Part shown: in pieces, positions 5,845-59,021 of the stretch
Layout of the letters: every line of letters starts with the position of its first letter
Numbering within the stretch: the first letter of the stretch is position 1
Origin: Dictyostelium discoideum
Taxonomy: Eukaryota
DNA length: 64,000 bases
NCBI GenBank assembly: GCA_000004695.1
Contig: CM000151.3
Location: forward strand, 288,001 to 352,000
Direction of reading: 5' to 3'
Notes under the pieces: generated by a model
What the model was told of the DNA's origin: nothing
Seen by the model: only the letters and a program-made list of their open reading frames with translations
The model's database searches: none
Made by a program: the position numbers and the translations under genes

Positions 5845-6213
5845 TTATGGTGCACCATGAGTAGCTGATGGAACAGTAGTGGTTGATGATGCAAAATGAG
5901 AAGTTAATGGACCAATAGAAGTTGATGGTGTTGCATGAGTAGTTGATGGACCAGTGGAAGTTGATGATGTAACATGAGTAGTTGGTGAATCAATGGAAGT
6001 TGATGATACAGTATGAGTATTTGATGGACCAGTGGAAGTTGATGATGTAACATGAGTAGTTGATCTACTACTACCACTACTACCACTACAACTACTGCTA
6101 CTATTAATACTAATACTAATACTATTACTAATACTAATACTAATACTAATACTAATACTAATACTAATACTAATTCTACTATCTTTACTATTCATTCCAA
6201 TTGGTGTTATCAT
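5845..6213 (-). repeat. Ser/Thr-rich mucin-like tandem-repeat ORF (TTHVTSSTSTGPS units, poly(IS) run); probably part of a repetitive element
   Basis: 122-aa ORF of imperfect 13-aa repeats. Related Thr/Ser/Pro-coding segments lie at 4440-4520, 31240-31500 (frameshifted) and 37640-37740, each beside the hairpin repeat. Confidence 0.35.
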
Positions 6214-6764
6214 CTGAAGTTGAATTAATTTTTATCACTTTTAAAACCGAATTCTCGACGTCTCCAAGAATATAAGAACAATAATTCAATATTGTTACAT
6301 TATGTTGTTGAAACATTTACACCTCTACCCCGTGCATATGTATCATTATTATTTGATATTGCAATTGAATGATTAACAATTAAAATGAAAACCAAAAAAA
6401 AAAAAAAAATTGGAAATTGGTAATGTTTCTACTGTAAAAAAAAAAATTAAAAAAAAAAATTAAAAAAAAAAAAAATAAAAAAAAAAATAAATAATTTTAG
6501 AAGCTATTATTATTTATTTATTTATTTATGTATTTATTTTTTTTTTATTTTTTTTATATATTTATCTTTTTAATTATTTTTTTGACAAATAATTGAGAAT
6601 GAAAACTAGAATTATTACCAATCTAATTTATTTCTTAATTTTTTTTTTTTTTGATTTTTCTTTTTTTTTTGATATTTTTCAAAAATTTTTTTTTAAAATA
6701 TATAAATGAGATATTTTAAAACATATCATTTATCAGACACTCTTTATAATTTAAACAAATAATA

Positions 6765-8618
6765 ATGTCAACAAATAAAAAAATAAAAACAGATAATAAT
6801 AATAAAATATTTCAAGATATTATTGATTTTGAAATTTTAAAATCTATAATCGATTATTTATTAACCAGCAAAAAAAATAAAAATAATAATAATATTAATA
6901 ATAATCAATATATAATTAAAAAATTTTATTTATATAGAGATGAAATATTAAATTATATATTAGTTTCAAAAAAGTGGTATAATTTTATATCATTTACAAT
7001 ATCAAATAATATTATTAATAATAAACTATTTGAACATTGGTTAAAAACTAATTTTAGTAATAATTCATTTATTGAAAATTATAATAATCAAAATCAATAT
7101 GATAAAAATAATTTAATTTATAATAACATAGAAGATAAACAATATAAAATTAGTTTTAATAAAGAATTTTCAATTATAAAAATCAAAGAATCAATAATCA
7201 ATGATTATTTTAAATTCAATTTATTTTTAGATCATTTTACGATTGACGATGATTTTAAAGAAATTAAAAATAAATTTGAAAAAAATCAATTACTTTATCA
7301 TAGAATTGTAGTTAGTGTTGATACTGATAATTATGGGTTTCCTAGTGATATTTTATTTACAATACATGAATATGTATCAAATGAAAATTCAGAAATCATA
7401 TCAAATTTATTTAAAATATTAGAATTAAATTTTGATTTTTGGTTGGATTACGGATATTGTCCACGTTCTGAAGAGGAGGATGATGAAGGTAATAAAAAAT
7501 GTAGAGAAATATATTTAAATAATTTATCAATTGCTGGTTATAATAGAGAAGTAGGTGAAGATGAAGAAACATTAAAGATATTCAAAATTTTCAAAAGTAA
7601 AAATATAATTTATGATGGATCCAATATTGATGAAAGTGATACTCCAACACATATCGATTATTCAACATTATTCGATCCAGATAATTCAGGTCAACAAGTT
7701 GAATCAATTAAAGTAAAAAATGAATATGGTAATGAAGCACGTCATTTAATCAAACTTAATCAATTTAAAAATTTACATTCAATTACAATACCAATTAATT
7801 CATTTCAAATATTATCAAACTTATCTGAAGAAATGGGATTTTGTAAGTTATATCGTACGATATATTCAGGTGATTCAGATAATATGAAATCAGAATTAAA
7901 TCAAATGATTAATTCATTCATTACAAATAAATCTTTAAAGTATTTAAATATATCATCTGTAAATTCAATATACACTCTTCCAATTAAAAATTATGATGGA
8001 GGTTATCATGAAATTTTTTTTAATAAAATAAATAAAACTATAGAATCATATTCAAATTCATTTAAACCATTATTTTCAGAATTAAATACATCGATTGAAA
8101 GAATTGAATTTGATTGTATGGGTTTATTAAATAATAAATCAATTAAATATTTATATTTATATGATAGTGATTTCATTGTTTATTCATCAAAACAAAAAGG
8201 TAATGTTAGTGGTATTCGATTACATAAAGAACATATTTCAATTAATCAATATTTATTTGATAATATATTTTCATCACCATTAACATCAATTAGACATTAT
8301 AAAATTAAATTCATAGAATTAAATCAAATCAAATTCTTATTTAATTTAATATTAAATAATATTTTTAAATTACAATTATATTCATTAATATTTGAATTCA
8401 ATGATAGCGAATTAATTGGTGAATTTGTTAAAGAATTTAAAAACTTAATAAATAATATTTCAACACAAGAACAACAAAAATCAAATAACATAAATTTAAA
8501 AGAAATTAAGATTAAAATTCAAGATGTTAATATTGATAAATATATTCAAGAATTAAATAATATTAACAATCCATATTTTACAACAATAATAAAGAAAAAA
8601 GCTAATAATGATGATTAA
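6765..8618 (+). CDS. Paralog-array family member 2 (617 aa, intact)
   Basis: Same architecture and motifs as 473..2452. The conserved leader ...CTCTTTATAATTTAAACAAATAATAATG is present upstream. Confidence 0.75.
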   Translation: MSTNKKIKTDNNNKIFQDIIDFEILKSIIDYLLTSKKNKNNNNINNNQYIIKKFYLYRDEILNYILVSKKWYNFISFTISNNIINNKLFEHWLKTNFSNNSFIENYNNQNQYDKNNLIYNNIEDKQYKISFNKEFSIIKIKESIINDYFKFNLFLDHFTIDDDFKEIKNKFEKNQLLYHRIVVSVDTDNYGFPSDILFTIHEYVSNENSEIISNLFKILELNFDFWLDYGYCPRSEEEDDEGNKKCREIYLNNLSIAGYNREVGEDEETLKIFKIFKSKNIIYDGSNIDESDTPTHIDYSTLFDPDNSGQQVESIKVKNEYGNEARHLIKLNQFKNLHSITIPINSFQILSNLSEEMGFCKLYRTIYSGDSDNMKSELNQMINSFITNKSLKYLNISSVNSIYTLPIKNYDGGYHEIFFNKINKTIESYSNSFKPLFSELNTSIERIEFDCMGLLNNKSIKYLYLYDSDFIVYSSKQKGNVSGIRLHKEHISINQYLFDNIFSSPLTSIRHYKIKFIELNQIKFLFNLILNNIFKLQLYSLIFEFNDSELIGEFVKEFKNLINNISTQEQQKSNNINLKEIKIKIQDVNIDKYIQELNNINNPYFTTIIKKKANNDD

Positions 8619-9223
8619 AAAAAATTATCTATATCTAAATTATTCATTTTTCATCCAACTATTTATTTTTTTTTTATTTTTTTTTTTTCAAGTTTTATTT
8701 GGATAAAATTAAATAAAATATTTTTTTTATTTATTTTTTTTTTTTTAGTTTCAAACTGTCACACCTGAATAAAAAAAATAAATGAAAAAACCCTCCCTCT
8801 TTATAATTTTTACAAATAATAATAATATCAACAAATTAAACAGACAATTATAATTTACAAAAAAAAAAAAAAAAAAAAAAAAAAATGGAAAAAAGAAAAC
8901 ATTTTTTTTTTTTAATTATTTCTAATTATTTTTAGAATTTAAACACTTTTATACACCTTATTATATTTTAAAATTTAAATTATTTAAAATGAGTGAATTA
9001 GGGGCAAAAAACGAAAAAAAAAAAAGAATTTCTTGCATAAAAAATATCTTTCTCAAATTTTTTTTTTTTTTTTTTATTTTATTTCATTTTTATTTTTATT
9101 TTATTTTTTATTTTATTTCATTTTATTTTTTTTTCCCAAAAAAAACCTTGTTTGAACCAAACAAATACTGTAACACACAAAAAAAAAAAATTGTAAACAT
9201 CTTTAATGGGTGCGACCATAAAT

Positions 9224-9272
<49 letters not shown>

Positions 9273-9662
9273 TTTGGGACAGTATTTGTTCGTTTCACAA
9301 AAAAAACAATTGAAAAAATCTTTCATGGCACTAAAAAAAGATTTTTAAAAAAAAAAAAAATGGATAAAATTTTAAAAAAACGATATCCATTTTGAATAAT
9401 TTAAAAAAAAAATAGGATGTATAAAGATAATCAAAAAAGAAACTTTTTATCCAAAAATGGATAAAGGTAAAATACTAAAAATTAAAATATATATATTAAA
9501 AAAAAAAATTAAATATATTTTTTTTATATATTTATTTTTTTTTTTTTTTTTTTTTTTTCTAAAAATTTAACAAAATAAACATTTTTTCAAAAAAAAAAAA
9601 AAAAAAAAAAAAAAAATTACCTCATTATTCTCGCGCACTCTTTATAATTTAAAAAAATAATA

Positions 9663-11516
9663 ATGTCAACAAATAAAAAAATAAAAACAGATAATAATAA
9701 AAAAATATTTCAAGATATTATTGATTTTGAAATTTTAAGATCAATAATTAATTATTTATTAATCAGCAAAAAAAATAAAAATAATAATAATAATACTAGT
9801 AATCAATATAAAATTAATAAATTTTATTTAAATAGAGATGAAATATTAAATTATATATTAGTTTCAAAAAAGTGGTATAATTTTATATCATTAACAATAT
9901 CAAATAGTATTATTAATAATAAATTATTTGAACATTGGTTAAAAATTAATTATAATAATAAATCATTTATTGAAAATTTTAATAATCAAAATCAATATGA
10001 TAAAAATAATTTAATTTCTAAAAACAAAAAATATAAACAAAATAAAATTAGTTTTAATAAAGAGTTTTCAATTATAAAAATCAAAGAATCAATAATCAAT
10101 GATTATTTTAAATTCAATTTTTTTTTAGATTATATTACAATTGATGATTTTAAAGAAATTAAAAATAAATTTGAAAATAATCAATTACTTTATAATAGAA
10201 TTGTAGTTAATGGTAGTTATGAAGGGGAAGTTTTATTTGGAATACATGAATATTTATCAAATGAAAATTCAGGAGTTATTTTAAATTTATTTAAAATATT
10301 AGAATTAAATCATGCTTTTAATTTATATTATAAACCAAAATCTGAAGAGAAGGATGAGGAGGATGGTCATGATGATAAAGGTAATAAGAAATGTACTGAA
10401 ATATATTTAAATAGTTTATCAGTTTTTGGTTTTGATGAAGGTGAGGGTGAAGTTCAAACATTAAAGATATTCAAAGTTTTCAAAGGTAAAAATTTAGTTT
10501 ATGATGGATCTGAAGAAGATCCTGATTTTCAAACACATATCAATTACTCTGCATTATTTGATCCAGATAGCTCAGGTCAACAAGTTGAATCGATTCAAGT
10601 ACAAAATAAATATGATAATGAAGAGTCAGTCGAAGCACGTCATTTAATCAAAGTTAATCAATTTAAAAATTTACATTCAATTATAATACCAATTAATTCA
10701 TTTCAAATATTATCAAACTTATCTAAAGAAATGGGATTTATTAGTTCCCATGGTTATGAAGAATATTCAGGAAATTCAGAAAATATGAAATCAGAATTAA
10801 ATCAAATGATCAATTCAATCGTTACAAGTAAATCTTTAAAGAATTTAAAAATAACATCTGTAAATTCAATATATTATCCAATTGATTACAAAGCTTTTTA
10901 TGATGGTGATCTTGAAACCCTTACTAATAAAGTAAATGAAACTATAGAATCATTTTCAAATTCATTTAAACCATTATTTTCAGAATTAAATACATCAATT
11001 GAAAGAATTGAATTTGATTGTATGGGTTTATTAAATATCAATACATTTTCAAATTTATTAAATAATAAATCAATTAAATATTTATATTTATATAATAGTG
11101 ATTTCATTGTTTTTTCACCTAAAAAAAGAGGTGGTCCATTTCATAGAGAACCTATTTCAATTAATCAATATTTATTTGATAATATATTTTCATCACCATT
11201 AACATCAATTAGACATTATAAAATTAAATTCATAAAATCAAATGAATTAAAATTCATATTTAATTTAATATTAAATAATATTTTTAAATTACAATTATAT
11301 TCATTAATATTTGAATTCAATGAAAACGAATTAATTGGTGAATTTTTTAAAGAATATAAAAATTTAAAAAATAATATTTCAACACAACAACAAAAATCAA
11401 ATAACATAAATTTAAAAGAAATTAAAATTAAAATTAAAGATGATGAATATATTCAAGAATTAAATAATATTAATATTCCATATTTCACCACAACATTAAT
11501 AAAGAAAATAACCTAA
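9663..11516 (+). CDS. Paralog-array family member 3 (617 aa, intact)
   Basis: Paralog with the same N-terminal F-box-like motif, ALFDPDSSGQQVESIQV core and IPYFTTTLIKKIT end. Conserved leader upstream. Confidence 0.75.
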   Translation: MSTNKKIKTDNNKKIFQDIIDFEILRSIINYLLISKKNKNNNNNTSNQYKINKFYLNRDEILNYILVSKKWYNFISLTISNSIINNKLFEHWLKINYNNKSFIENFNNQNQYDKNNLISKNKKYKQNKISFNKEFSIIKIKESIINDYFKFNFFLDYITIDDFKEIKNKFENNQLLYNRIVVNGSYEGEVLFGIHEYLSNENSGVILNLFKILELNHAFNLYYKPKSEEKDEEDGHDDKGNKKCTEIYLNSLSVFGFDEGEGEVQTLKIFKVFKGKNLVYDGSEEDPDFQTHINYSALFDPDSSGQQVESIQVQNKYDNEESVEARHLIKVNQFKNLHSIIIPINSFQILSNLSKEMGFISSHGYEEYSGNSENMKSELNQMINSIVTSKSLKNLKITSVNSIYYPIDYKAFYDGDLETLTNKVNETIESFSNSFKPLFSELNTSIERIEFDCMGLLNINTFSNLLNNKSIKYLYLYNSDFIVFSPKKRGGPFHREPISINQYLFDNIFSSPLTSIRHYKIKFIKSNELKFIFNLILNNIFKLQLYSLIFEFNENELIGEFFKEYKNLKNNISTQQQKSNNINLKEIKIKIKDDEYIQELNNINIPYFTTTLIKKIT

Positions 11517-11759
11517 AATTTAGGTGGTGTAATAGTTGAACGTGATGACATCGTGTAAAGGGGATCGTTGGCATAATAACCTACTAAATTTGGTGAACAC
11601 AGGATCATAGGTTTACTATAAACAAACATATAAAGAAATAAAAGATAAAAATAAAATGATATAAGATTTTTTTTTTTTTTTTTTTTTTTATTATTATTAT
11701 TATTGTAATAAAAAAAAAATAATAATTTTAGTACTAAAATTTTTTTAGTAATTTTAGTA

Positions 11760-11885
11760 ACAGTTAATTAATCCCATGAGTTTCTATTTGTTTATATTTG
11801 AGATGATTATTAATTAAATGACTTTGACTTTTTTCTTTTTTCTATGCCAAAATTACCATATTAATTTCAGCATATACATAGCTGC
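11760..11885 (+). repeat. Solo end fragment of the palindromic-end MITE family
   Basis: TTAATTAATCCCATGAGTTT..ATTTGAGATGATTATTAATTAAATGACTTTGA..CTATGCCAAAATTACCATATTAATTTCAGC matches the 4110-4290 terminus. No partner end nearby. Confidence 0.5.
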
Positions 11886-11936
11886 CAATGTGGTGTTCAA
11901 TTCATTCTAGATAATTTAAATAGTAACTATTATTAA

Positions 11937-12050
11937 CTATTTCTTTATTACTGTTGTGAAATATGGAATATTAATATTATTTATTTCTTGAATATATTCA
12001 TTATCATTAGTTTCAATTTTAATTTCTTTTAAAGTAATGTTATTTGATTT

Positions 12051-12126
<76 letters not shown>

Positions 12127-13916
12127 ATTGAAATATTATTTATTAAATTTTTAAATTCTTTAACAAAATCACAAACTAATTCGTTTTTATTGAATTCAAA
12201 TATTAATGAATATAATTGTAATTTAAAAATATTATTTAATATTAAATTAAATATGAATTTTAATTGATTTAATTCATTCAATTTAATTTTATAATGTCTA
12301 ATTGATGTTAATGGTGATGAAAATATATTATCAAATAAATATTGATTAATTGAAATAGGTTCTTGATGTAATTCATTACCGCTATAACTTGGTTTTGAAG
12401 AGTAAACAATGAAATCACTACCATATAAATATAAATATTTAATTGATTTATTATTTAATAAATTTGAAAATGTATTGATATTTAATAAACCACAACAATC
12501 AAATTCAATTCTTTCAATTGATGTATTTAATTCTGAAAATAATGGTTTAAATGAATTTGAAAATGATTCTATAGTTTCGTTTATTTTATTAGCAAAAATT
12601 TCATGATCAGCTCCCTTACAATCACGATAATATAAACCTTCATAATCAATTGGAGAATATTTTGAACTTACTGATGAGATATTTAAATTCTTTAAAGATT
12701 TACTTGTAATAAATGAATTGATCATTTGATTTAATTCTGTATTAATATTTTCAGAGTTACCCGATTCTGATTTACTATTATAAAATCTAATAAATCCCAT
12801 ATCCTCAGATAAGTTTGATAATATTTGAAAAGAGCTAATTGGTATTGTAATTGAATGTAAATTTTCAAATTGATTAACTTTGGCTAAATGGAGAGGTTCA
12901 ACAAATTCATCATTATCAGGTTCAATTTGTACTTTAATTGATTCAACTTGTTGACCTGAATTATCTGGATCAAATAATGCTGAATAATTGACATGTGTAG
13001 GCATATCACTACAAGTATCAGATCCATCATAAAATATATTTCTACCTTTGAAAATTTTGAATATCTTTACTGTTTCTTCATCATTACCTACTTCTCCATC
13101 AAAACCTGCAATTGATAAATTATTTAAATATAATTCAGTACATTTCTTACCACCTTTATCAGTATCATGATCACCTTCCTCCTCTTCAGAGTTTGGGCTA
13201 TAACCATTATCCAAACAAAAATCAATATTTAATTCTAATATTTTAAATAATTTTGATATGACTTCTGAATTTTCATTTGATACATATTCATGTATTCTAA
13301 ATAAAGTTGTTTTATTATTATTACTATCATAATCAGCATCAACATTAACTACAATTCTATTATAAAGTAATTGATTATTTTCAAATTTATTTTTAATTTC
13401 TTTAAAATCATCAATTGTAATCTTATATAAAAATAAATTGATTTTAAAATAATCATTGATTATTGATTCTTTGATTTTTATAATTGAAAACTCTTTATTA
13501 AAACTAATTTTATTTTGTTGATAATTATAATCTTCATCTTTAAAAATTAAATTATTTTTATCATATTGATTTTGATTATTATAATTTTCAATAAATGATT
13601 TATTTTTATTATTATAATTAATTTTTAACCAATGTTCAAATAATTTATTATCAATAATATTATTTGATATTGTTAATGATATAAAATTATACCACTTTTT
13701 TGAAACTAATATATAATTTAATATTTCATTTCTATAAAAATAAAATTTATTAATTTTATATATATTAATAGTATTATTATTTAAATTATTATTTTTATTT
13801 TTATTTTTTTTGCTAGTTAATAAATAGTTGATTATAGATTTTAAAATTTCAAAATCAATAATATCTTGAAATATTTTATTGTTATTATTTGTTTTTATTT
13901 TTTTACTTGTTGACAT
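11937..13916 (-). CDS. Paralog-array family member 4 (659 aa, intact), the only inverted copy; carries a (CAA)n-encoded polyQ tract of about 26 Q
   Basis: Intact ORF on the minus strand with the family motifs. A (TTG)n/(CAA)n microsatellite at 12050-12125 encodes QQQ...Q just before the C-terminal SNNITLKEIKI motif. Confidence 0.75.
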
Positions 13917-19698: not shown

Positions 19699-20155
19699 TT
19701 CGAAATGTTTAAACAATCATACAGTTTAAAATTAAATAAATTGTTTTAAACCACCACTTTTTTTGAACACATGAAAATAAATAAGATATAAAAATAATAA
19801 GATAAAAAAAGATTTTTTTTTTTTTTTTTTTTTATTTTATAATTATTCTTGTCGTCAGTATTGTTACTATAATTAATCCCATGAGTTTTTTTTATTATTA
19901 TTTTTAATTCTTTTATATTTGAGATGATTATTATTAATTAAATGACTTTGAGTTTTTTTTTTTATTTTTCTATGCCCAAAATTACCATATTAATTTCAGC
20001 AGCCATATTAATTTCAGCCTAAAATAGTTGGTCTGTGCATGCCAAAATTAATATGGCTGCTGAAATTAATATGGTAATTCTAGCAGACATAAGTCCCATG
20101 CCAAAATTACCATATTAATTTCAGCAGCCATATTAATTTTGGCATGGGACACACA
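19690..20155 (+). repeat. Terminus of the palindromic-end MITE family, capping the 15.4-20.2 kb duplicated block
   Basis: Matches the 3955-4420 subterminal and terminal sequence, including the double palindrome ...CCATATTAATTTCAGCAGCCATATTAATTTCAGC...GTCCCATGCCAAAATTACCATATTAATTTCAGCAGCCATATTAATTTTGGCATGGGAC. Preceded by (AAT)n at 19621-19690. Confidence 0.55.
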
Positions 20156-21489: not shown

Positions 21490-23472
21490 ATGTCAACAAA
21501 AAAAAAAATTAAAACAGATAATAATAATAAAATATTTCAAGATTTTATTGATTTTGAAATTTTAAGATCTTTAATCAATTATTTATTAATCAACAAAACA
21601 AATAATAATAATAATAATAATAATAAATATAAAATTAGTAAATTTTATTTACATAGAAATGAAATATTGAATTATATATTAGTTTCAAAAAAGTGGTATA
21701 ATTTTATATCATTAACAATATCAAATAATATTATTAATAATAAATCATTTGAACATTGGTTAAAAATTAATAATAATAATAATAATAAATCATTTACTAA
21801 AAATTATAATAATCAAAATCGATATGATAAAAATAATTTAATTTTTAATAACAAATATAGTAAAAATAAAATTGGTTTTAATAAAGAATTTTCAATTATA
21901 AAAATCAAAGAATCAATAATCAAAGATTATTTTAAATTCAATTTATTTTTAAGTAATATTACAATTGATGATTTTAAAGAAATTAAAAATAAATTTGAAA
22001 ATAATCAATTAGTTTATAATAGAATTGTTGTTGATATTAAAACTGGCTATTATGGTGAAGGGAATCAAGATGAAATTTTATTTAAAATACATGAATATGT
22101 ATCAAATGAAAATTCAGAAATCATATCAAATTTATTTAAAATATTAGAATTAAATCATGATTTTATGATAATCGATGACTTTCATCCAAAATCTAAAGAA
22201 GAGGATGAAGAGGATGAGGAGGATGATGAAAATGATAAAGGTAGTAAGAAATGTACTGAAATATATTTAAATAATTTATTGGTTTCCGGTTATGATCTAA
22301 CTATGGATGAGGATGAAGATAGAGAATCATTAAAGATATTCAAAATATTTAAAAGTAAAAATATATTTTATGATGGGTCTGGTATTGCTAGTGATATTCC
22401 AACACATGTCAATTATTCAGCATTGTTTGATCCTGATAATTCAGGTCAACAAGTTGAATCGATTAAAGTAAAAAATGAACTTGAAGATCCTGATTTTGTA
22501 GAACCACTCCATTTAATCAAAGTTAATCAATTTAAAAATTTACATTCAATTACAATACCAATTAATTCATTTCAAATATTATCAAACTTATCCGAAGAAA
22601 TGGGATATTTTAGTATCGATTGTTTTAAATCTGGTTTTGGTCTTTCAGATAATATGAAATCAGAATTAAATCAAATGATCAATTCATTCATTACAAGTAA
22701 ATCTTTAAAAAATTTAAAAATAACATCTATTAGTACAAAAGAAGATCCAATTGATTATGATGCTTATTATGATGAAGGTGATCTTCAAACTTTTATGAAT
22801 CAAATAAATGAACCTAAAGAATCATTTTCAAATTGTTTCAAACCATTATTTTCAGAATTAAATACATCAATTGAAAGAATTGAATTTGATTGTTGCGGTT
22901 TATTAAATATCAATACATTTTCAAATTTATTAAATAATAAATCAATTAAATATTTATATTTATATGATAGTGATTTCTTTTTTTCTTCATTAAAAACAAG
23001 TGATGGTGGTAGTGATGATTGTGGTATTGATGATGATGGTGGTAGTGATGATTGTGGTATTGATGATGATGGTGGTAGTGATGATTGTGATGCATATCAA
23101 AAAATTATTTCCATTAATCAATATCTATTTGAAAATATATTTTCATCACCATTAACATCAATTAGACATTACAGAATTAAATTCAAAGAATTAGATGAAT
23201 TAAAATTCATATTTAATTTAATATTAAATAATATTTTTAAATTACAATTATATTCATTAATATTTGAATTCAATGAAAACGAATTAGTTTATGAATTTGT
23301 TAAAGAATTTAAAAATTTAATAAATAATATTTCAATACAAGAACAACAACAACAACAACAAAAATCAAACAACATAAATTTAAAAGAAATTAAAATTATA
23401 ATAAATGATGACTGTTTAGAAGAATTAAATAATCCATATTTCAAAACAACAATAAAGAATAGCCCATATTAA
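21490..23472 (+). CDS. Paralog-array family member 5 (660 aa, intact); contains an internal 3x (DDCGIDDDGGSD) tandem expansion
   Basis: Intact ORF with the family motifs. A 39-nt unit is repeated three times at 22990-23100 inside the variable region that precedes the conserved ISINQYLF motif. Confidence 0.75.
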   Translation: MSTKKKIKTDNNNKIFQDFIDFEILRSLINYLLINKTNNNNNNNNKYKISKFYLHRNEILNYILVSKKWYNFISLTISNNIINNKSFEHWLKINNNNNNKSFTKNYNNQNRYDKNNLIFNNKYSKNKIGFNKEFSIIKIKESIIKDYFKFNLFLSNITIDDFKEIKNKFENNQLVYNRIVVDIKTGYYGEGNQDEILFKIHEYVSNENSEIISNLFKILELNHDFMIIDDFHPKSKEEDEEDEEDDENDKGSKKCTEIYLNNLLVSGYDLTMDEDEDRESLKIFKIFKSKNIFYDGSGIASDIPTHVNYSALFDPDNSGQQVESIKVKNELEDPDFVEPLHLIKVNQFKNLHSITIPINSFQILSNLSEEMGYFSIDCFKSGFGLSDNMKSELNQMINSFITSKSLKNLKITSISTKEDPIDYDAYYDEGDLQTFMNQINEPKESFSNCFKPLFSELNTSIERIEFDCCGLLNINTFSNLLNNKSIKYLYLYDSDFFFSSLKTSDGGSDDCGIDDDGGSDDCGIDDDGGSDDCDAYQKIISINQYLFENIFSSPLTSIRHYRIKFKELDELKFIFNLILNNIFKLQLYSLIFEFNENELVYEFVKEFKNLINNISIQEQQQQQQKSNNINLKEIKIIINDDCLEELNNPYFKTTIKNSPY

Positions 23473-23625: not shown

Positions 23626-23895
23626 TTTTTTTTTTTTATATAAATAAATAATTTACCTTTTGATTTGGAAATATAATTTATTTTATTTTGTTTGTTGTAG
23701 GGAATTTTCCATAAAATTTCACTACAGTAGCGTAGTGAATTTTATTATTTAATTTCACTACAGTAGCGTAGTGAAAAAAAAAAATCACTGACCTTAAATT
23801 TTTTTTTTTTTCAAAAAACAAATAAAGTTTATTAAATTGAAATTTTATTTTTTGTTTTAATTATTATTTTATTTATTTTTATTATAATTATTGTT

Positions 23896-23935
<40 letters not shown>

Positions 23936-24076
23936 CAATTTTTTTTTTTTAAATTTTTTTCAATTTTTATTTGTTTATTAAATTGTAATTTTATTTTTTG
24001 TTTTAATTATTATTTTATTTATTATTATTGTTAATTTTTTTTTTTTTTCAATTTTTTTTTTTTTAATTTATTTTTA

Positions 24077-24385
24077 TTAATTTATTTTTATTAACTCCCT
24101 GAGTTGTTCAATTGCTTGATTTACCATATCACTGTAAACACTGCACACAATTGAATTTTTTCTAGCTTTGTTACCTCTGGTGCATTTGATGTTTTTGCAT
24201 TTTCCTTTGTATACAAAAAAGTCCAAATATAATTCGTTTTCTATTACAGTTTTTACACAATGTTGGTGAAATTGTTTTGATTTTAATTCTAATGCTTCTA
24301 ACATCATATTTGGATTTTTAACGATTAAAGCATCACCACTATTTACATATAGTACTTTGGCTGCTTTTTCGAGGAATTTAGTCAA
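24077..24385 (-). CDS. Hypothetical ORF (102 aa) inside the Tdd-4-like element
   Basis: Open frame LEKAAKVLYVNSGDALIVKNPNMMLEALELKSKQFHQHCVKTVIENELYLDFFVYKGKCKNIKCTRGNKARK.... A possible short upstream exon at 24386-24480. No recognisable domain. Confidence 0.3.
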   Translation of the reverse strand: MTKFLEKAAKVLYVNSGDALIVKNPNMMLEALELKSKQFHQHCVKTVIENELYLDFFVYKGKCKNIKCTRGNKARKNSIVCSVYSDMVNQAIEQLRELIKIN

Positions 24386-24842
24386 ATTTTCCTCTGAATC
24401 TAACTATTCTTCATTGCCATATTCAATGGCTAAATTTCTTAAGAGTTTTATCGAATCTATTAATTCTTCGATCATTCTTTTTTTTTGAAATTTTTTTTTA
24501 TTTTGTTTTTTCAATTTTTTTTTTTTATTTTGTTTTTTCAATTTTTTTTAAGTTTTATTTTTTTTTATTTTTTTTTATTTTTTTTAACAAATGTAATTTT
24601 TTTTTATTTTTTTCAATTTTTTTTTTTTTTTAATTTTTAATTTTTTTTTTTTTTTTTAATTTTTTGTGTTGATTTGTGTTTTTTTTGTTTTTTTGATTTG
24701 GCCACTTGTTTTTATTTTCTAATTTCCCCATACCCCCTTCTATTAATTGCAACCAAATCAAGTTCTAATTTTTGTGTCCTTGTTAACTTTGTTTTTGCAA
24801 CTTTTTTTGAAGGTATCACATTAACGATTTTTCCTATTGATG

Positions 24843-25042
24843 GTGATTTGGAAGGTGATTTAAATGGTGATTTAAAAGGTGAATTGGAAGGTGATTTAAA
24901 TGGTGAATTGGAAGGTGAAATGGATGGTGATTTGGAAGGTGATTTAAATGGTGATTTGGAAGGTGATTTTAATGGTGATTTAAATGGTGAATTGGAAGGT
25001 GAAATGGATGGTGATTTGAGAGGTGATTTGGATGGTTTAGAA
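24843..25042. repeat. 15-bp tandem repeat (GGTGATTTRRAWGGT, about 13 units); possible subterminal transposase-binding repeats
   Basis: Direct tandem units in the DNA. Translates in the + frame to GDLEGDLNGDLKGELEG..., but more likely non-coding. Its reverse complement carries the AAATCACC motif that is also tandemly repeated inside the R elements. Confidence 0.5.
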
Positions 25043-26121
25043 TGTGATTTTAAAGGAGGTTTATTAACAATTGGTAGGACGGGAGGACGGCCTCTGAACA
25101 GTTGTTACTATACCACTATACCATTACCAGATTGTGGTATAGTATACGATGGTATTATTTGCACTTGAGGTAACTATTTCTTTTAATCTTTTAAATTCAT
25201 ATCCTTTCTCAAACAATTCATTAAATTTGGCGCTGTTAGATTATTATTTAAAAATGGGAGTATTTCTTCTTGTTCCATTTCATTATTGAGTTTGTGTTGA
25301 AATGGATTATCGTTAATGATAGGTGGAATATTTGATGGATTGTTAATAGCATCTTCCAAAACCCTAAATGGATCATTTTGTGTTACCAATTGATGCAAGT
25401 TGAAATTGGATAAATCCTTACCAAGATTTTTAATAAACTGAACCAAAAATTCAATAACTTTCCCATCATTATTTAAATAAAGACCAGAAGTAAAAGAATC
25501 AATATCTTTTTGTATGTTTGGCGATGTTCTAAAAATATCAACTGTTGATTGTTTATAAAGAACCAACTTGTTACCTCCTACAAAACCAGAGTATAAACCT
25601 TTTTTTTGAAGGCTATTGATTCCATCTTCCAAAAATTCAAGTTTATAAAGTTGTTTAGTGTCTTCCTGTATTACCTTATGAATTTTACACAAAATCAATA
25701 TTTTCTATTAGAATTAAATATAAAATTTGTTAATTATTACTGTTTCATATATTATTAATCTTTATGTTTTAATTACTTACATTATTTTTTTTAATTTCTA
25801 GAAAGAGTACAGTATCACCAACTTTCAATCCCTTTGGTGGTTTTGAATTCCATTGATTTTGGTAACTTGTGAGATTTTCAAGAATAATAGCTGTTCTTTC
25901 TTCTTTTGAAACATCTGAAACACCAATTGATTGAGAGTCTTGTTCTGATTGAACATTAATAAACAAAGGAACAATACCAACAGCTTGAGATGGTGTCATT
26001 TTAATTGTTCTTGTTTTTGTATTATTGTAATCATACAAAGCTTGTTTTAATAGTTCAGAAAGAGACCTAGAAGTACCATCAAGAAAACTAAAATTTATTT
26101 ATAAATGATTAATTAATAAAC

Positions 26122-26873
26122 ATCACAGCAAAGAAAAAACCACCTTTAAATTCGCTTTAAATTAAATTTAAATTTGCTTTAAAGTCCTGAATTAAAGCAA
26201 TTTTAAAGGTAATTTTTAAGGTTACTTTAAAATCACCTTAAAAATTACCTTTAAAATTACCTTTAAAATTACCTTTTTAATGGCTTTAAAAGCGAGGTCC
26301 TGAGTTCGAATCCGTTATTTAACGGATAAATTTTTTAAAATTTTTTTTTTAATTTTTCAAAAATTACCCAAAAGGGATTCGATCCCCCGACCCTCTATCA
26401 AAGGGTAGTCTCATCAACCATTACACCATTTGATTGCTTTGATGAAAAATTTAAAAATGATAGAATATTTTATCCCCATTTTTTTGTGCTAAAATTAGAT
26501 CTTTTTTATTAAAAATCTTAAATTTATGTTTAAAGGAAATTTAAATTCACTTTAAATCTACTTTTAATCTACTTTAAATCCTATTTAAAATTAATTTAAA
26601 ATAAATTTTAAAGGTATTTTTAAATATCTTAAAAATTATCTTAAAAATTACCTTAAAAATCACCTTTAAAATCACCTTTAAAATCACCTTTAAAATTGCT
26701 TAAAAATTTATTTTAAAGCAAATTTTAAAGGCATTTTTAAATATCTTAAAAATTACCTTAAAAATTACCTTAAAAATGAATTTTTTAAACGCGGCTTTAA
26801 ATTCAATTTAAATCCAATTTAAATCAACTTTTCTTTAAATTTGCTTTAAAGGTGCATTTTTCTTTGCTGTGAT
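26122..26873. mobile_element. R element copy 1 (about 750 bp, MITE-like) inserted in the transposase gene
   Basis: 12-bp terminal inverted repeat ATCACAGCAAAG / CTTTGCTGTGAT. Internal tandem AAATCACCTTT and AAATTACCTTT repeats. Internal tRNA-like segment with A-box and B-box. Flanked on both sides by AT. A second copy at 27678..28458 is more than 98% identical in the same orientation. An R-like fragment also lies inside a MITE at 35100-35200. Confidence 0.6.
26374..26437 (-). ncRNA. tRNA-like module inside R element (A-box TGGTGTAATGG, anticodon-arm-like ACCCT/TTGATAG/AGGGT, B-box GGATCGAATCC); lacks an acceptor stem, so a tRNA-derived / SINE-like promoter module
   Basis: The minus strand reads GCAATCAAATGGTGTAATGGTTGATGAGACTACCCTTTGATAGAGGGTCGGGGGATCGAATCCC. 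The T-arm and anticodon arm fold, but the 3' acceptor strand does not pair with the 5' end. An identical module lies in R2 at 27959..28022. Confidence 0.4.
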
Positions 26874-27677
26874 ATCGATAATTTATATTGTTCACAATAT
26901 CATACTCTTGTTGTTTTAATTTTGAGATCCTCTCCTTGATAGTTCGATTCAATCTTTCTACCATACCTTGAGTTGTTGGTGTACGAGGAGCTCCATGTGC
27001 TGACTTGGAGCCTGGAAAAAGTTTTAGGAATTCTTTTTGGACTTTGTTTTTAAATTCACGTCCATTATCGCAGTGCCATACTTTCACAGGTTTGCCAAAG
27101 TACGTGAGAGCCAAAAAATTGTATATGGGAACTGTTCTCTTTGTTGTCAAACATCTAAAAAATAAATGATAATTAAAATAAAAAAAGAAAACTAATAAAT
27201 TAATAAATAAAAAATAAATACCTTCCAGTAGCAAATTTTGTAAAAGAATCTATGCATAGAATAATGTAAACAACATCGGTGTCGTACGGTTGTACAGAGT
27301 CATATTGGATAAGATCATCTAGTTTAGTTAGTATCTTTTCATTATCATCATCGTATGTAACTTTTTCTTTATGTTCACCTTTAATTGATGTTAAATCATA
27401 AACCAATCTTGAGTATTCCTCGGTATCTACAATTGGAGCAAAATCCTTTGTTATACCTATTAATTTATTTAAATTATTAAAAGAGTTTTAATATAAAAGT
27501 TACAAAACATCATATAAAAATGATTGATACCAAACCTTTTATTCTATTTCGTTGGCAAATGTCACACGTATCTACTGCATCAGATACAAAAGAATACAAT
27601 CCCATATTATAATATTTAGTCTTGTAGTTCCCATAGGTTGCATCTCTTCCTATATGACCTTTATGCATTTCTTCCCA

Positions 27678-28458
27678 GAGTGATACCATCACAGCGAAGA
27701 AAAAACCACCTTTAAATTCGCTTTAAATTAAATTTAAATTTGCTTTAAAGTCCTGAATTAAAGCAATTTTAAAGGTAATTTTAAAGGTAATTTTTAAGGT
27801 TACTTTAAAATCACCTTATTTAATATTTATTTATAGGCTTATCATTTAAGCTGAAGGGTTATTTTAATGGCTTTAAAAGCGAGGTCCTGAGTTCGAAGCC
27901 GTTATTTAACGGATAAATTTTTTAAAATTTTTTTTTAATTTTTCAAAAATTACCAAAAGGGATTCGATCCCCCGACCCTCTATCAAAGGGTAGTCTCATC
28001 AACCATTACACCATTTGATTGCTTTGATGAAAAATTTAAAAATGATAGAATATTTTATCCCCATTTTTTTGTTCTAAAATTAGATCTTTTTTATTAAAAA
28101 CCTTAAATTTATGTTTAAAGGAAATTTAAATTCACTTTAAATCTACTTTAAATCTACTTTAAATCCTATTTAAAATTAATTTAAAATAAATTTTAAAGGT
28201 ATTTTTAAATATCTTAAAAATTATCTTAAAAATTACCTTAAAAATCACCTTTAAAATCACCTTTAAAATCACCTTTAAAATTGCTTAAAAATTTATTTTA
28301 AAGCAAATTTTAAAGGCATTTTTAAATATCTTAAAAATTACCTTAAAAATTACCTTAAAAATGAATTTTTTAAACGCGGCTTTAAATTCAATTTAAATCC
28401 AATTTAAATCAACTTTTCTTTAAATTTGCTTTAAAGGTGCATTTTTCTTTGCTGTGAT
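27678..28458. mobile_element. R element copy 2 (MITE-like) inserted in an exon of the transposase gene
   Basis: Same TIRs and internal structure as 26122..26873. Removing it plus one flanking AT dinucleotide joins ...EVCLEVINDYR to MVSLWEEMHKGHIGRD... in frame. Confidence 0.6.
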
Positions 28459-28743
28459 TCTATAATCATTAATTACTTCTAAACACACTTCTTTTGATAT
28501 ATTTCTATCTCCGCCACAATTCATGACTTTTTTTTCAATTCTAAATAATTTTTCTTTTCTGTTTCTGTTTTTTATTGGTCAGAATTTAAAAAATGATTGT
28601 GTTATTGTAAGGAAAAATATTTACTCATCATGTAAAAATTTATAATTTTTATGTTTAGTATTTTCAAAATTATTATCTTCAATAAATTTTAAATAATTTA
28701 TAATTTCATTTATTTTATCTTGTTTCATTTTGGGAAAATGAAA

Positions 28744-28778
<35 letters not shown>

Positions 28779-29313
28779 TGTTGGGGAAAAAAAAAAAAAG
28801 TTTTGGCGCAAAAAAAAAAAAAAAAATTAAATAAAAAAAAAAAAAAATTAAATAAAAAAAAAAAAAAATAAAAAAACTTATATAGAACTAATAATCAAAT
28901 AAAAGATAATAATTTAATAAACTTTATTTGTTTTTTGAAAAAAAAAAAATTTAGGGTCAGTGATTTTTTTTTTTCACTACGCTACTGTAGTGAAATTAAA
29001 TAATAAAATTCACTACGCTACTGTAGTGAAATTTTATTGAAAATTCCCTACAACATTGTTCGATGAAAATGAGAAGATTTTTTTTATCCCAGTTGTAGTG
29101 AAAAAATTAAATAATATTTTTAAATTACAATTATATTCATTAAAATTTGAAAAAAAATAATAAAAAAAAAAAAAAATTTTTGGCTTTTAAGATTTATGGA
29201 GAATTATCCATCAAAAAAAAAAAAAAAAAAAAAAGGTTAAAAAAAAAAAAAAGGTTAAAAAAAAAAAAAAAATTAAACTTTTTTTTAAAAACTTATTCTT
29301 AAAACAAATAAAA

Positions 29314-34904: not shown

Positions 34905-35322
34905 TCAAATTGGACACCCAAAAAAATTTTCATTTTATTTTTCATTTTTTTTTTTTTTTTTTTTACAAACAATAATTTAAATTTATTAATTCTTAATATG
35001 AATTAAGTATAGATAAATAGAGCACTCAAAAATACACAAAATGATATAAAAATTAAAAAAAATGAATGTAATCATTCTGTTTTTTGAATTTTTTATTTTA
35101 CTTTTTAAATCAAAATAAATTTTAAAGGCATTTTTAAATATCTTAAAAATATCTTAAAAATCACCTTTAAAATTATTTACCATTCATTCGTTTTTATCAA
35201 TAAAAAATAAAATTAGAAAAAAAAAAGAAAATTGTGATTTTTTTTTTTTTTTTATTTTTTTATTTTTTTTTTTTATTTTATTTTTTTTTTTTTTTTGGTT
35301 GTCCAATTTGAATGCTGTTATC
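34905..35322. mobile_element. Small MITE (about 420 bp) with 22-bp TIRs CATTCAAATTGGACACCCAAAAA; the interior carries an R-like AAATCACC repeat fragment
   Basis: ACATTCAAATTGGACACCCAAAAAA at 34905 and its reverse complement TTTTTGGTTGTCCAATTTGAATG at 35297-35322. A solo TIR copy at 34706-34730 overlaps the CMTR1-like ATG. A related copy lies at 43276-43520. Confidence 0.5.
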
Positions 35323-35359: not shown

Positions 35360-37456
35360 ATGTCAAAAAATAAAAAAACTAAAACAGATAATAAAATATT
35401 TCAAGATGTTATTGATTTTGAAATTTTAAGACCTATAATCAATTATTTATTAATCAGCAAAAATAAAAATAATAATAATAATAATAATAATAATACTAAT
35501 AGTAATCAATATAAAATTAATAAATTTTATTTAAATAGAAATGAAATATTAAATTATATATTAGTTTCAAAAAAGTGGTATAATTTTATATCATTAACAA
35601 TATCAAATAATATAATTAATAATAAATCATTTGAAAATTGGTTAGAAATTAATAATAATAATAATAATAATAATAAATCATTTATTGAAAATTATAATAA
35701 TCAAAATCAATATGATAAAAATAATTTAATTTTTAATATTAAAAATGAAAAACCAAATTATTATAATCAAAAACGAAATAATACAGTTTTTAATAACAAA
35801 GAAGATAAACAAAATAAAATTAGTTTTAATAAAGAGTTTTCAATTATAAAAATCAAAGAATCAATAATCGATGATTATTTTAAATTCAATTTATTTTTAG
35901 ATGATATTACAATTGATGATTTTAAAGAAATTAAAAATAAATTTGAAAATAACCAATTACTATATAATAGAATTGTAGTTAATCTTAAAACTAGTGGTAA
36001 TAATACTTTATTTGAAATAAATGAATATGTATCAAATGAAAATTCAGAAATCGTATCAAATTTATTTAAAATATTAGAATTAAATTTTGATTTTTGGTTG
36101 GAGGATGGTTATAGTGCAAAATATGAAGAGTTGGAGGAGGAGGATGATCATGGTGGTAAGAAATGTACTGAATTATTTTTAATAAATAATTTATCAATTT
36201 CTGGTTTTAATATTAGTATAGGTAATGATGAAACATTAAAGATATTCAAAAATTTCAAAAGTAAACATATAATATATGATGGGTCAGATGATGTTGATAA
36301 TTATCAAGCGCATGCCAATTATTCAGTATTATTCGATCCAGATAATTCAGGTCAACAAGTTGAATCAATTAAAGTACAAAGTAAACATGGTAATAAAGAG
36401 TCTGTTGAACCACTCCATTTGATCAACGTTAATCAATTTGAAAATTTACATTCAATTACAATACCAATAAATTCAATTCTATTATTATCAGAGATATCTA
36501 AAGAAATGGGCTTTTATGGATTCTATGATGGAAATGCATATTCAAGTTTTACTGGAGATGTCAAATCAGAATTAATCGAAATGGTCTTTTCAATCGCTAC
36601 AAGTGAATCTTTAAAGAATTTAAATATAACATCAATCAATTTTGAACAATATCCAATTAATTTCCAAGATTACGCTCACTATTATTTATCTCTTCCTGGT
36701 GGTGGTGGTCTTGAATTTTTTGCAAACAAAATAAATGAAATTATAGAACAATTTTCAAATTCATTTCAACCATTATTTTCAGAATTAAATACATCAATTG
36801 AAAGAATTGAATTTGATTGTTGTGGTTTATTAAATATCAATACATTTTCAAATTTATTAAATAATAAATCAATTAAATATTTATATTTATATAATAGTGA
36901 TTTCATTGTTTATTCATTAAAACAAAATGATAGTGGTAGTGGTAGTATGAAGCAAATGCATAAAGAACCTATTTCAATTAATCAATATTTATTTGAAAAT
37001 ATATTTTCATCACCATTAACATCAATTAGACATTATAAAATTAATTTCAAAGAATCAAAACAAATCAAACCAGTATTTAATTTAATATTAAATAATATTT
37101 TTAAATTACAATTATATTCATTAATATTTGTATTAAATAAAAGTAAATTAATTGGTGAATTTGTTAAAGAATTTAAAAATTTAATAAATAATATTTCAAT
37201 ACAACTACAACATCAACAAGAACAACAACAACAACAAGAACAACAAAAACAAAAATTAAATAATATAAATTTAAAAGAATTTAAAATTAAAATTGAAATT
37301 GAAAATAAAATTAAAATTAAAATCAAAGATAAAAATGAAATTAAAATTAATGAAAGGTATATTCAAGAATTAAATAATATTGATAATCCATATTTCACAA
37401 CAGTAATAAAGAAGATAGTTAGAAATGAAACCCCAAAAAAAAATTATCGAAAATAA
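35360..37456 (+). CDS. Paralog-array family member 7 (698 aa, intact; the longest, with extra N-rich insert and KIKIEIENKIKIKIK tail repeat)
   Basis: Intact ORF with the family motifs (LFDPDNSGQQVESIKV, NPYFTTVIKK). Confidence 0.75.
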   Translation: MSKNKKTKTDNKIFQDVIDFEILRPIINYLLISKNKNNNNNNNNNTNSNQYKINKFYLNRNEILNYILVSKKWYNFISLTISNNIINNKSFENWLEINNNNNNNNKSFIENYNNQNQYDKNNLIFNIKNEKPNYYNQKRNNTVFNNKEDKQNKISFNKEFSIIKIKESIIDDYFKFNLFLDDITIDDFKEIKNKFENNQLLYNRIVVNLKTSGNNTLFEINEYVSNENSEIVSNLFKILELNFDFWLEDGYSAKYEELEEEDDHGGKKCTELFLINNLSISGFNISIGNDETLKIFKNFKSKHIIYDGSDDVDNYQAHANYSVLFDPDNSGQQVESIKVQSKHGNKESVEPLHLINVNQFENLHSITIPINSILLLSEISKEMGFYGFYDGNAYSSFTGDVKSELIEMVFSIATSESLKNLNITSINFEQYPINFQDYAHYYLSLPGGGGLEFFANKINEIIEQFSNSFQPLFSELNTSIERIEFDCCGLLNINTFSNLLNNKSIKYLYLYNSDFIVYSLKQNDSGSGSMKQMHKEPISINQYLFENIFSSPLTSIRHYKINFKESKQIKPVFNLILNNIFKLQLYSLIFVLNKSKLIGEFVKEFKNLINNISIQLQHQQEQQQQQEQQKQKLNNINLKEFKIKIEIENKIKIKIKDKNEIKINERYIQELNNIDNPYFTTVIKKIVRNETPKKNYRK

Positions 37457-38440: not shown

Positions 38441-38564
38441 AAAATTTAATAAAAATAAAATATAAAAAAAAAATAAAATAAAAATTTCTAAAAGTTTGGC
38501 AAACAAAAAAAAAATAAGTTTTTTATTCAAAACATACTCTTTATAATTTTTAAAACAAATAATA

Positions 38565-38675
38565 ATGTCAACAAATAAAAAAATTAAAACAGATAATAAT
38601 AATAATAATAAAATATTTCAAGAAATTATTGATTTTGGAATTTTAAAATCTTTAATCGATTATTTATTAATCAAC

Positions 38676-38746
<71 letters not shown>

Positions 38747-40345
38747 TAATAATCACAATACTAGTAATCAATATAAAATTAATAAATTTTATTTAAATAG
38801 AAATGAAATATTAAATTATATATTAGTTCAAAAAAGTGGTATAATTTTATATCATTAACAATATCAAATAATATTATTGATAATAAATTATTTGAACATT
38901 GGTTAAACATTAATAATATTAGTAATAAATCATTTATTGAAAATTATAATAATCGAAATCAATATGATAAAAATAATTTAATTTCTAAAAACAAAGAAGA
39001 TAATCATAATAAAATTAGTTTTAATAAAGAGTTTTCAATTATAAAAATCAAAGAATCAATAATCAATGATTATTTTAAATTCAATTTATTTTTATATAAG
39101 ATTACAATTGATAATTTTAAAGATATTAAAAATAAATTTGAAAATAATCAATTACTTTATAATAGAATTGTTGTTAATGTTGATACTGGTTATGATGAAG
39201 AGAATCTAGATGAAATTTTATTTAGGATACATGTGTATCAAATGAAAATTCAGAAATCATATCAAATTGATTTAAAATATTAGAAAAAAATTATGATTTT
39301 ATGGTAATCGATGGTTATAATACAAACTCTGAAGAGGAGGAGGAGGATAAAAGTAATAAGAAATGTACTGAAATATATTTTAATAATTTATCAATTGTAG
39401 GTTTTGATACAAATATAGGTGAGGATAGAGAAGCAGTAAAGATATTCAAAATATTCAAAAGTATAAATATATTTTATGATGGGACCTTTCTTAATGCTAT
39501 TCCAACACATGTCAATTATTCAGCATTATTTGATCCAGATAATTCAGGTCAACAAGTTAAATCAATTATAGTACAAATTGGACGTGAAGAATATTCTGAT
39601 TTTGTTGAACCACGTCATTTAATCAAAGTTAATCAATTTGAAAATTTACATTCAATTACATTTTCAATCAATTCATTTCAAATATTATCCAATCTATCGA
39701 AAGAAATGGGATATTTTAGTTTCAAATGTATAAAATCTGATTTTGGTAATTCAGATAATATCAAATCAGAATTAAATCAAATGGTAAATTCAATCATTAC
39801 AAGTAAATATTTAAAGAATTTAAAAATAACATCCATTAATACAGAAAAACATCCAATTGATTATGATACTTATTATGATTATGGTGAACCTCAAGCTTTT
39901 GTTAATAAAATAAATGAAACTGCAGAATCATTTTCAAATTCATTTAAACCATTATTTTCAGAATTAAATACATCAATCGAAAGAATTGAATTTGATTGTA
40001 TGGATCAATACATTTCAAAATTATTAAATAATAAATCAATTAAATATTTATATGATAGTGATTTCATTGTTTACTCATTAAAACCAAGTGGTGGTGCTGG
40101 TGGTGCTGATGGTAGTCAAGTACATAAAGAACCTATTTCAATTAATCTATATCTATTTGATAACATATTTCCATCACCATTTACATCAATTAGACATTAA
40201 AGAATTAAATTCAAAGAATCAAAACAATTAAAATTCATATTTAATTTAATATTAAATAATATTTTTAAATTACCATTATATTCATTAATATTTGAAGAAT
40301 TAATTAATATTAATAGTCTATATTTCAAAATAGTAATAAAGAATA
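38565..40345 (+). pseudogene. Family member with multiple frameshifts (ORF pieces 38565..38858 and 39301..40200 plus a shifted C-terminus); contains a very long (AAT)n polyN tract
   Basis: The N-terminal ORF breaks at ILVQKSGIILYH (versus ILVSKKWYNFIS), resumes in another frame, and after the stop at 40200 continues as RIKFKESKQLKFIFNLILNNIFKL. Confidence 0.6.
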
Positions 40346-58958: not shown

Positions 58959-58998
<40 letters not shown>

Positions 58999-59021
58999 CA
59001 ATAAATTTTTAAAATTGAAAG

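Follow-up and report, generated by a model that had tools for sequence, protein, structure and literature searches.

The non-coding element R of Dictyostelium discoideum carries in its core a tRNA-like module that is probably the decayed remnant of a captured tRNA gene, travelling as a passenger in a non-autonomous cut-and-paste transposon together with a second, convergent tRNA-gene fragment. The module is tRNA-derived and full length, and it occurs in every R copy found. Two copies, R1 and R2, occur in the window (the whole stretch of DNA analysed here, 64,000 nucleotides with a G+C content of 20.5%), and both are nested within a larger DNA transposon. Coordinates of the main features are collected in Table 1.

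Table 1. Features of the R elements, their tRNA-like sequences and their host transposon
Feature	Position	Strand	Details
Host element, Tdd-4 DNA transposon	23693..29055	-	houses both R copies
R copy 1 (R1)	26124..26871	+	748 bp, non-coding TIR element
R1 ends			CACAGCAAAGAAAAA…/…TTTTTCTTTGCTGTG
R1 flanks	26122-26123 and 26872-26873		AT at each side, 2-bp direct repeat
R copy 2 (R2)	27690..28456	+	767 bp; orientation as R1; flanks AT/AT; within integrase coding sequence
Further R copies	L001 4083-4629; L001 11733-12237; L006 about 5437-6131; L007 about 8949-9840
tRNA-like sequence in R1, full length, degenerate	26365..26435	-	71 nt; Rfam tRNA model positions 1-71, 13.6 bits
tRNA-like sequence in R2	27950..28020	-	one G fewer in 3' acceptor strand
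A-box-like motif TGGTGTAATGG	26418..26428	-	fits TRGYNNANNGG
B box, internal type, GTCGGGGGATCGAATC	26376..26391	-	one mismatch (T54 to A) vs GTCnnnnGTTCRAnYC
T-run TTTT, module strand	26373..26370	-	inside 3' acceptor strand
T-run TTTTT, module strand	26363..26359	-	just past module
Second tRNA-derived piece, B box GTCCTGAGTTCGAATC	26297..26312	+	perfect match to GTCnnnnGTTCRAnYC
Hairpin CCGTTATTTAACGG	26312..26325	+	directly past plus-strand B box; followed by T-runs at 26331-26357
R2 plus-strand B box GTCCTGAGTTCGAAGC	27884..27899	+	1 mismatch

R is a mobile TIR element nested in Tdd-4

"R" is the label used here for a TIR family, and no distinctness from DDT-S or thug-T is claimed for it. 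R is a mobile, non-autonomous, MITE-like element bounded by TIRs and flanked by a 2-bp target duplication. Besides the two copies in the window, four more were found in other assemblies of the D. discoideum group, so that the sample comprises six copies, five of them independent, mostly drawn from the neighbourhood of Tdd-like integrase genes. The termini are inverted (CACAGCRAAGAAAAA…; consensus CACAGCRAAG…/…CTTYGCTGTG) and are the same in the copies from other genomes. Between arms made of sub-repeats of about 12 nt (26110-26174 and 26821-26885 in R1) lies a unique core of about 240 bp. Copies range from about 500 to 890 bp and differ mainly in the number of sub-repeats; R1 and R2 are nearly identical except for one variable sub-repeat block. 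No open reading frame of more than 37 amino acids is wholly contained in R.

Four of the five complete copies are flanked by a 2-bp duplication (AT/AT in R1, R2 and L006; TT/TT in L007), and the flanks of the copy designated L001a are imperfect (TA/TT). Because the flanks of L007 read TT/TT, the repeat is a target duplication and not a mere extension of the TIRs. Excision of R2 together with one AT restores the integrase reading frame (…VINDYRMVSLWEEMHKGHIGRDATY…) and yields a gap-free alignment to paralogous integrases, and this recovery of a colinear integrase marks R as a real insertion of the cut-and-paste type. A sequence-only reading of this DNA had placed the module inside a TIR element, and the inverted termini and 2-bp target duplication bear it out.

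The host element has TIRs of 243 nt, starting TGTTGTAGGGAATTTTCC / TGTTGTAGGG, a 5-bp target duplication, TTGTT (23688-23692 and 29056-29060), and a minus-strand integrase gene with an H2C2 zinc finger and an rve core. Subtracting R1 and R2 leaves about 3.84 kb, and this size, with the 5-bp duplication, identifies it as Tdd-4, for which 3,839 bp and a 5-bp duplication have been published (PMC2836005). A derivation of R from Tdd-4 (Ginger2/Tdd) was considered and rejected: R has CACAGCRAAG ends and a 2-bp duplication, whereas the host has TGT… ends and the 5-bp TTGTT.

All protein homologues of the integrase around the R copies come from Dictyostelium, among them DDB_G0282919 of strain AX4, which is 97% identical over part of its length. 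In another D. discoideum isolate the locus orthologous to this one (L012) is 99.5% identical and carries both R copies with identical modules; an allele without the R insertion (an empty site) was not found. In another isolate a gene model runs across both R copies and apparently takes them for introns of the integrase gene of Tdd-4.

A longer element with the TIR of R, which would be a candidate autonomous partner, was not encountered in the roughly 300 kb of sequence sampled. The core of R is absent from three DIRS-1-rich loci (L009-L011) and from four Tdd-like loci (L002-L005). The window also holds three palindromic mir-7131 loci identified with Rfam; mir-7131 is a D. discoideum microRNA family linked to the thug-S repeat (PMC4894637), and the TIR of R is not shared by these thug-S repeats.

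Two convergent tRNA-like sequences in the R core

The module lies on the minus strand of R, where the stretch 26437..26374 reads GCAATCAAATGGTGTAATGGTTGATGAGACTACCCTTTGATAGAGGGTCGGGGGATCGAATCCC. The sequence-only reading had described there an A-box-like motif, a B-box motif and, between them, a foldable anticodon-like arm, and all three are present at the positions it gave. The B-box motif, GGATCGAATCC, occupies 26385..26375 and is separated from the A-box motif by 32 nt; the arm, ACCCT-TTGATAG-AGGGT, spans 26406..26390 and has a perfect stem and the anticodon GAU. The same reading had reported an identical module in R2, and the two stretches (28022..27959 and 26437..26374) indeed agree at 64 of 64 positions, although the near-identity of R1 and R2 makes this agreement uninformative with respect to selection. 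Its statement that there is no acceptor stem has to be revised: AATCAAA pairs with TTTGGGT (TTTGGTA in other copies) at 5-6 of 7 positions, forming a weak stem, and the Rfam tRNA model can be aligned over its full length, positions 1-71.

The remaining parts of the cloverleaf are more degenerate. The D arm is weak and carries a G-G mismatch in its stem in all copies, pair 13-27 never forms, and the T stem has 4 bp (GGGG/CCCT). The substitution of T54 by A falls within GTTCRA, the most conserved core of the B box. T-runs such as those within and just past the 3' end of the module (Table 1) are likely pol III stop signals, and an internal TTTT is atypical of a working tRNA gene. The module has a G+C content of 45%, compared with 20% for the genome. 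The Rfam tRNA match (gathering threshold 29 bits) surfaced only in a reduced search space, with E = 1.5 for 91 bases against all families; a search of the whole of R in E-value mode returned only weak AT-rich hairpin matches to microRNA families, far below threshold. ARAGORN recovered the R1 module only under relaxed or mitochondrial settings and called the R2 module in mitochondrial mode. In a sister copy (L001 11914-11985) there is an additional G and the T stem has 5 bp; this copy scores 17 bits and is called tRNA-Ile(GAU) by ARAGORN at default settings.

Several other identities were examined and set aside. A tRNA-Gln-like register with a CTTTGAT loop was rejected with 3 of 5 stem pairs, compared with 5 of 5 for the GAU register. 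A C/D snoRNA on the plus strand was rejected since a D box is absent, and the UGAUGA at 26441-26446 is accordingly treated as chance. The anticodon-arm sequence has no matches in the bacterial and archaeal genomes or the viral contigs scanned, and a foreign donor is therefore not indicated. The only metagenome match (L008) to the conserved 20-mer AAAAGGGATTCGATCCCCCG lies inside a GC-rich bacterial coding region and was dismissed as chance.

The window holds one genuine tRNA gene, tRNA-Val(AAC), which scores 57.9 bits on the Rfam tRNA model. As the only genuine tRNA compared, it has the D-loop and T-arm style of the module in common with it but not the anticodon arm; 16 of 19 positions of its variable-loop and T-arm region are identical in the module.

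A second tRNA-derived piece, absent from the sequence-only reading, is located 62 nt from the 3' end of the module, on the plus strand, and points toward it, so that the two are convergent. Within it, AGGTCCTGAGTTCGAATCC is identical to tRNA-Val positions 44-63 at 16 of 19 sites (p about 0.001 against shuffles). Its B box has the GTC signature, which distinguishes tRNA-internal from external B boxes (PMC3159450). This piece has neither an A box upstream of it nor a T-stem or acceptor sequence on its 3' side, and its likeness to a tRNA ends past the T loop. The stem of the hairpin that follows it is retained in all six R copies. Compared with each other, the two relics agree at 24 positions over 33 nt (p = 0.012), a likeness that could reflect either an old inverted duplication or simply common tRNA ancestry. 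Taken together, the module and the plus-strand piece make the R core a pair of convergent tRNA-gene relics with an A/T-rich spacer between them.

Box motifs of this kind are far more frequent in the window than expected. The combination of an A box (TRGYNNANNGG) with a B box that follows it at tRNA spacing and has at most one mismatch occurs twice, both times in R, and not once in 200 simulated windows of matched dinucleotide content. For D. discoideum the published B-box consensus reads GTCnnnnGTTCRAnYC (PMC3159450). With at most one mismatch it is matched five times in the window, compared with 0.51 expected, and no shuffle reached five. Four of these matches lie in the R copies (none mismatched at 26297-26312 on the plus strand, one mismatch at each of the other three R sites), and the fifth lies in tRNA-Val.

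Decay, proposed capture and competing readings

As the sequence-only reading had maintained, the module is not a functional tRNA gene. The module and its best-scoring sister both remain under the 29-bit threshold (13.6 and 17 bits), and the acceptor strand contains an internal TTTT. Fold z-scores of 0.02 (26365..26435) and -0.28, compared with -2.32 for tRNA-Val, show folding no better than that of shuffled sequence. In the covariance-model check that the earlier reading had proposed, the alignment to the tRNA model is full length and the 13.6-bit score is below 29 bits; a cloverleaf emerges under relaxed ARAGORN settings.

Comparison of the copies indicates that the module is under no detectable constraint beyond that of the neighbouring R sequence. 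Among the five independent copies, 31% of columns vary in the module, 31% in the upstream flank (87 columns) and 51% in the downstream spacer, a comparison of rates whose power is low given only six copies (five independent), most of them taken from the vicinity of Tdd-like integrase genes. Although 84% of cloverleaf cells are paired across the copies, compensatory changes occur at none of the 20 cloverleaf pairs, and each stem change disrupts pairing. Both boxes are mutated in L001a (A box AGGTGTCAAGG, B box GGATGGAATCC), and the anticodon arm is missing from L006. Five of the six copies, among them the most diverged (L006, 75% identical), have the B-box region GGGGGATCGAATCCCTTTTGGT without any change.

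The position of the module bears on how R moves. In R1, R2, L006 and L007 the distance of the module from the left end is about 240 bp and that from the right end 330-440 bp; in the short copy L001a it is about 140-220 bp from the ends. None of the R copies found starts at the module. Since the module is internal in every copy, R is presumably mobilised by its TIRs. The likely history would begin with an ancestor of R picking up host DNA that carried tRNA-gene sequence, probably when a transposition event involved template switching or gap repair, or when TIRs were recruited to either side of a genomic segment. The relic would thereafter have been copied passively whenever the TIRs moved the element, and its A and B boxes would be an inheritance from the tRNA ancestor with no part in mobilising R, not an adaptation of the element. 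Capture of a tRNA pseudogene, which the sequence-only reading had offered as its fallback, is thus the best-supported reading.

A different view is that the boxes are live, and that R cores would recruit TFIIIC/TFIIIB and perhaps pol III to produce a short tRNA-like RNA. In that case the copies would be dispersed extra-TFIIIC sites, possible chromatin boundaries or landing pads for retrotransposons that target tRNA genes. Isolated B boxes are functional TFIIIC targets in D. discoideum (PMC3159450), the A box fits its consensus, and the module B box is one mismatch away from that of the species and unaltered in five of six copies; on the plus strand of R1 the B box matches the consensus perfectly, and T-runs stand at the terminator position on both strands. 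Against these motifs must be set the substitution of T54 in the GTTCRA core, a purine at the consensus pyrimidine position of the plus-strand box in most copies, the loss of both boxes in one copy and a conservation of the module no higher than that of its flank. Retrotransposons give a further indication. A TRE retrotransposon is present at 61% of genuine D. discoideum tRNA genes (PMC5006619), but no retroelement is inserted in the module or at typical distances from it in any of the six R copies, where the R sequence is unbroken. If R cores acted like tRNA genes of the same age, five empty independent copies would be unlikely (0.39^5, roughly 1%), although the absence could instead stem from young copies or from a heterochromatic setting. 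On balance, the view that R cores recruit the pol III factors appears unlikely, and the proposition that R would spread working TFIIIC-binding B boxes, possibly with a small pol III unit, around the Dictyostelium genome is more doubtful still.

It is very improbable that R, as a SINE-like retroposon or SINE/MITE hybrid, is copied via a pol III transcript from a tRNA-derived promoter. SINEs derived from tRNAs are defined by a promoter in the form of a tRNA-like head carrying A and B boxes, and A-rich sequence does follow the module; yet the module is internal and not at an end of R, and the element has TIR ends and 2-bp duplications in place of 5'-tRNA ends and long variable duplications. Moreover, TTTT/TTTTT would halt pol III at the 3' end of the module itself, so that neither arms nor TIRs would be transcribed. 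The idea of a tRNA-derived pol III promoter, raised in the sequence-only reading, therefore survives in part: the tRNA derivation is upheld by the covariance model and the box statistics, but a promoter relevant to the element is not. A SINE-like promoter role is unsupported given the TIR-bounded copies, the internal module, the T-runs, the flank-like variability, the disruptive stem changes and the mutated boxes.

The proposal that the repeat contains a genuine, if unusual, tRNA gene (tRNA-Ile with anticodon GAU, possibly of organellar type) is equally hard to sustain. It could draw on the default ARAGORN call in the sister copy, the mitochondrial-mode call in R2 and a cloverleaf drawing in which 84% of cells pair, but it is contradicted by scores of 13.6-17 bits against a threshold of 29, folding like that of shuffled sequence, T54 to A, the D-stem mismatch, the internal TTTT and the disruptive differences between copies. 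GAU is not known as a standard nuclear isoleucine anticodon in eukaryotes. Chance similarity in a repeat, the refutation allowed for in the sequence-only reading, could appeal to the marginal E-value of the tRNA-model match, but it is effectively refuted by the box counts and the tRNA-Val identity, and the full-length model alignment and high G+C content of the module in a genome of 20% G+C also count against it.

R compared with known mobile and tRNA-related sequences

As a decaying passenger, the module is a tidy case of the capture of host sequence by a non-autonomous DNA transposon. It has a practical consequence for annotation, as a sister copy can be miscalled as tRNA-Ile(GAU) by ARAGORN and R copies appear to have been treated as integrase introns. 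A broader significance would attach to R if its B boxes bound TFIIIC. In Dictyostelium, at least four retrotransposon lineages rely on the pol III machinery to locate sites for integration, and TRE5, TRE3, DGLT-A and Skipper-2 select theirs via the pol III complex. By supplying B boxes that move, one class of transposon would then have a new means of steering where others land, and R would create new landing pads or chromatin boundaries and could thus contribute to the nested transposon clusters that house it.

The closest parallel to R is found in MITE-like TIR transposons with a captured host core. Like these, R has TIRs, a short duplication of fixed length, no coding capacity, copies of varying length that nest in other transposons and a core derived from the host, here from tRNA genes. 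R differs in the nature of its cargo, material from pol III genes that consists of a complete tRNA-like unit and a second piece with a B box. No precedent for a MITE with a tRNA-derived core, or for Dictyostelium tRNA pseudogenes, was found in the searchable literature, which does not include the papers that defined the D. discoideum DNA transposons. Like tRNA-derived SINEs, R is a short, non-coding, interspersed repeat in which a tRNA-related sequence contains A and B boxes. In those elements, however, the tRNA head forms the 5' end and drives the transcript that is reverse transcribed, TIRs are lacking and the duplications are long and variable, whereas in R the module is internal, the ends are TIRs, the duplications are 2 bp and no transcript would get past the T-runs at the module.

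Isolated or external B boxes of D. discoideum (located downstream of 66% of tRNA genes, with 22 on the rDNA palindrome) and the extra-TFIIIC sites of yeast resemble R in having consensus matches outside functional tRNA genes, and the plus-strand copy in R1 is exact, including GTC. Most R copies have one mismatch, and for isolated B boxes the binding of TFIIIC and the attraction of TRE5-A have been shown or inferred, whereas R is known from its sequence. Dada DNA transposons, which insert specifically into tRNA and snRNA genes (PMC3706591), are likewise physically tied to tRNA-gene sequence. Dada elements are flanked by this sequence, which is their target; R carries it mid-element, and the insertion sites of R (an integrase exon and AT-rich DNA) are not tRNA genes. 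The R module has in common with tRNA pseudogenes a cloverleaf ancestry, a sub-threshold score, broken pairs and mutated boxes. Such pseudogenes decay in place at a single locus, whereas the module in R has been multiplied and dispersed by a mobile DNA element.

R copies and their Tdd-4 host

R, the non-coding element of about 750 bp with terminal inverted repeats (TIRs) and a tRNA-like core, occurs twice in the window (R1 and R2), both times within a complete Tdd-4 DNA transposon. At the orthologous locus of another isolate (L012), both copies appear to have been handled as introns, because a single integrase gene model of 645 aa (5423-8400) runs across the two. In a further isolate (L001), a Tdd-4 terminus at 11436-11733 directly adjoins a truncated R copy at 11733-12237. 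An R copy lies no more than 5 kb away at four of the eight sampled Tdd-like integrase loci, whereas none was found at that distance at the three loci rich in DIRS-1. R and Tdd elements seem to co-cluster.

Features of the window and of one R-like terminus elsewhere
Feature	Sequence	Coordinates	Strand	Details
Complete Tdd-4 DNA transposon	window	23693-29055	-	TIRs 243 nt; 5-bp target-site duplication TTGTT; holds both R insertions
Conserved palindrome, then T-run	window	26486-26509		R core; equivalent place in all R copies
Short stretches like the ~12-nt sub-repeats of the R arms (TTACCTTTAAAA-like)	window	24926-25000; 35104-35178		80-91% over 47-71 nt
Solitary R-like terminus (CACAGCGAAGAAAATCGCACC…)	L005	4552-4680		no tRNA-like core; followed by unrelated AT-rich tandem array
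Genuine tRNA-Val(AAC)	window	59021-59095	-	homopolymer runs in flanks, 58962-59010 and 59150-59176
Duplicated long ORFs, several families	window	473-2452, 11937-13916 (-), 21490-23472; 6765-8618, 9663-11516; 35360-37456, 38553-40294		
Palindromic Rfam mir-7131 matches (three)	window	4311-4399, 20048-20136, 60037-60125	both	94-99 bits

The R core and R-like sequence

The palindrome of the R core has the sequence GATCTAAAATTAGATC in the majority of copies, and R1 has GTGCTAAAATTAGATC; it might act as a hairpin of the terminator type or as a site for protein binding. The likeness of two short stretches of the window to the R sub-repeats is probably simple-sequence convergence; the first falls within a segment of Tdd-4 where the plus strand carries an ORF with a repetitive, GDLEGDLNG-like translation. 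The solitary terminus at L005, a Tdd-like locus, may stem from a broken copy or belong to another subfamily.

Other features of the window

Downstream of the tRNA-Val(AAC) gene, an A-run of about 45 nt starts after about 25 nt and no external B box was seen; a T-run of about 27 nt is located about 70 nt upstream. Both runs may represent the tails of TRE retrotransposons, which target tRNA genes. The duplicated ORFs (617-698 aa, with some pairs 78-86% identical in DNA) have no Pfam match, and the region that contains them is a lineage-specific paralogue cluster. Each match to the microRNA family mir-7131 is surrounded by a repeat common to all three loci. The termini of this repeat are not shared with R, and it is presumably the thug-S element, the known source of these microRNAs (PMC4894637).
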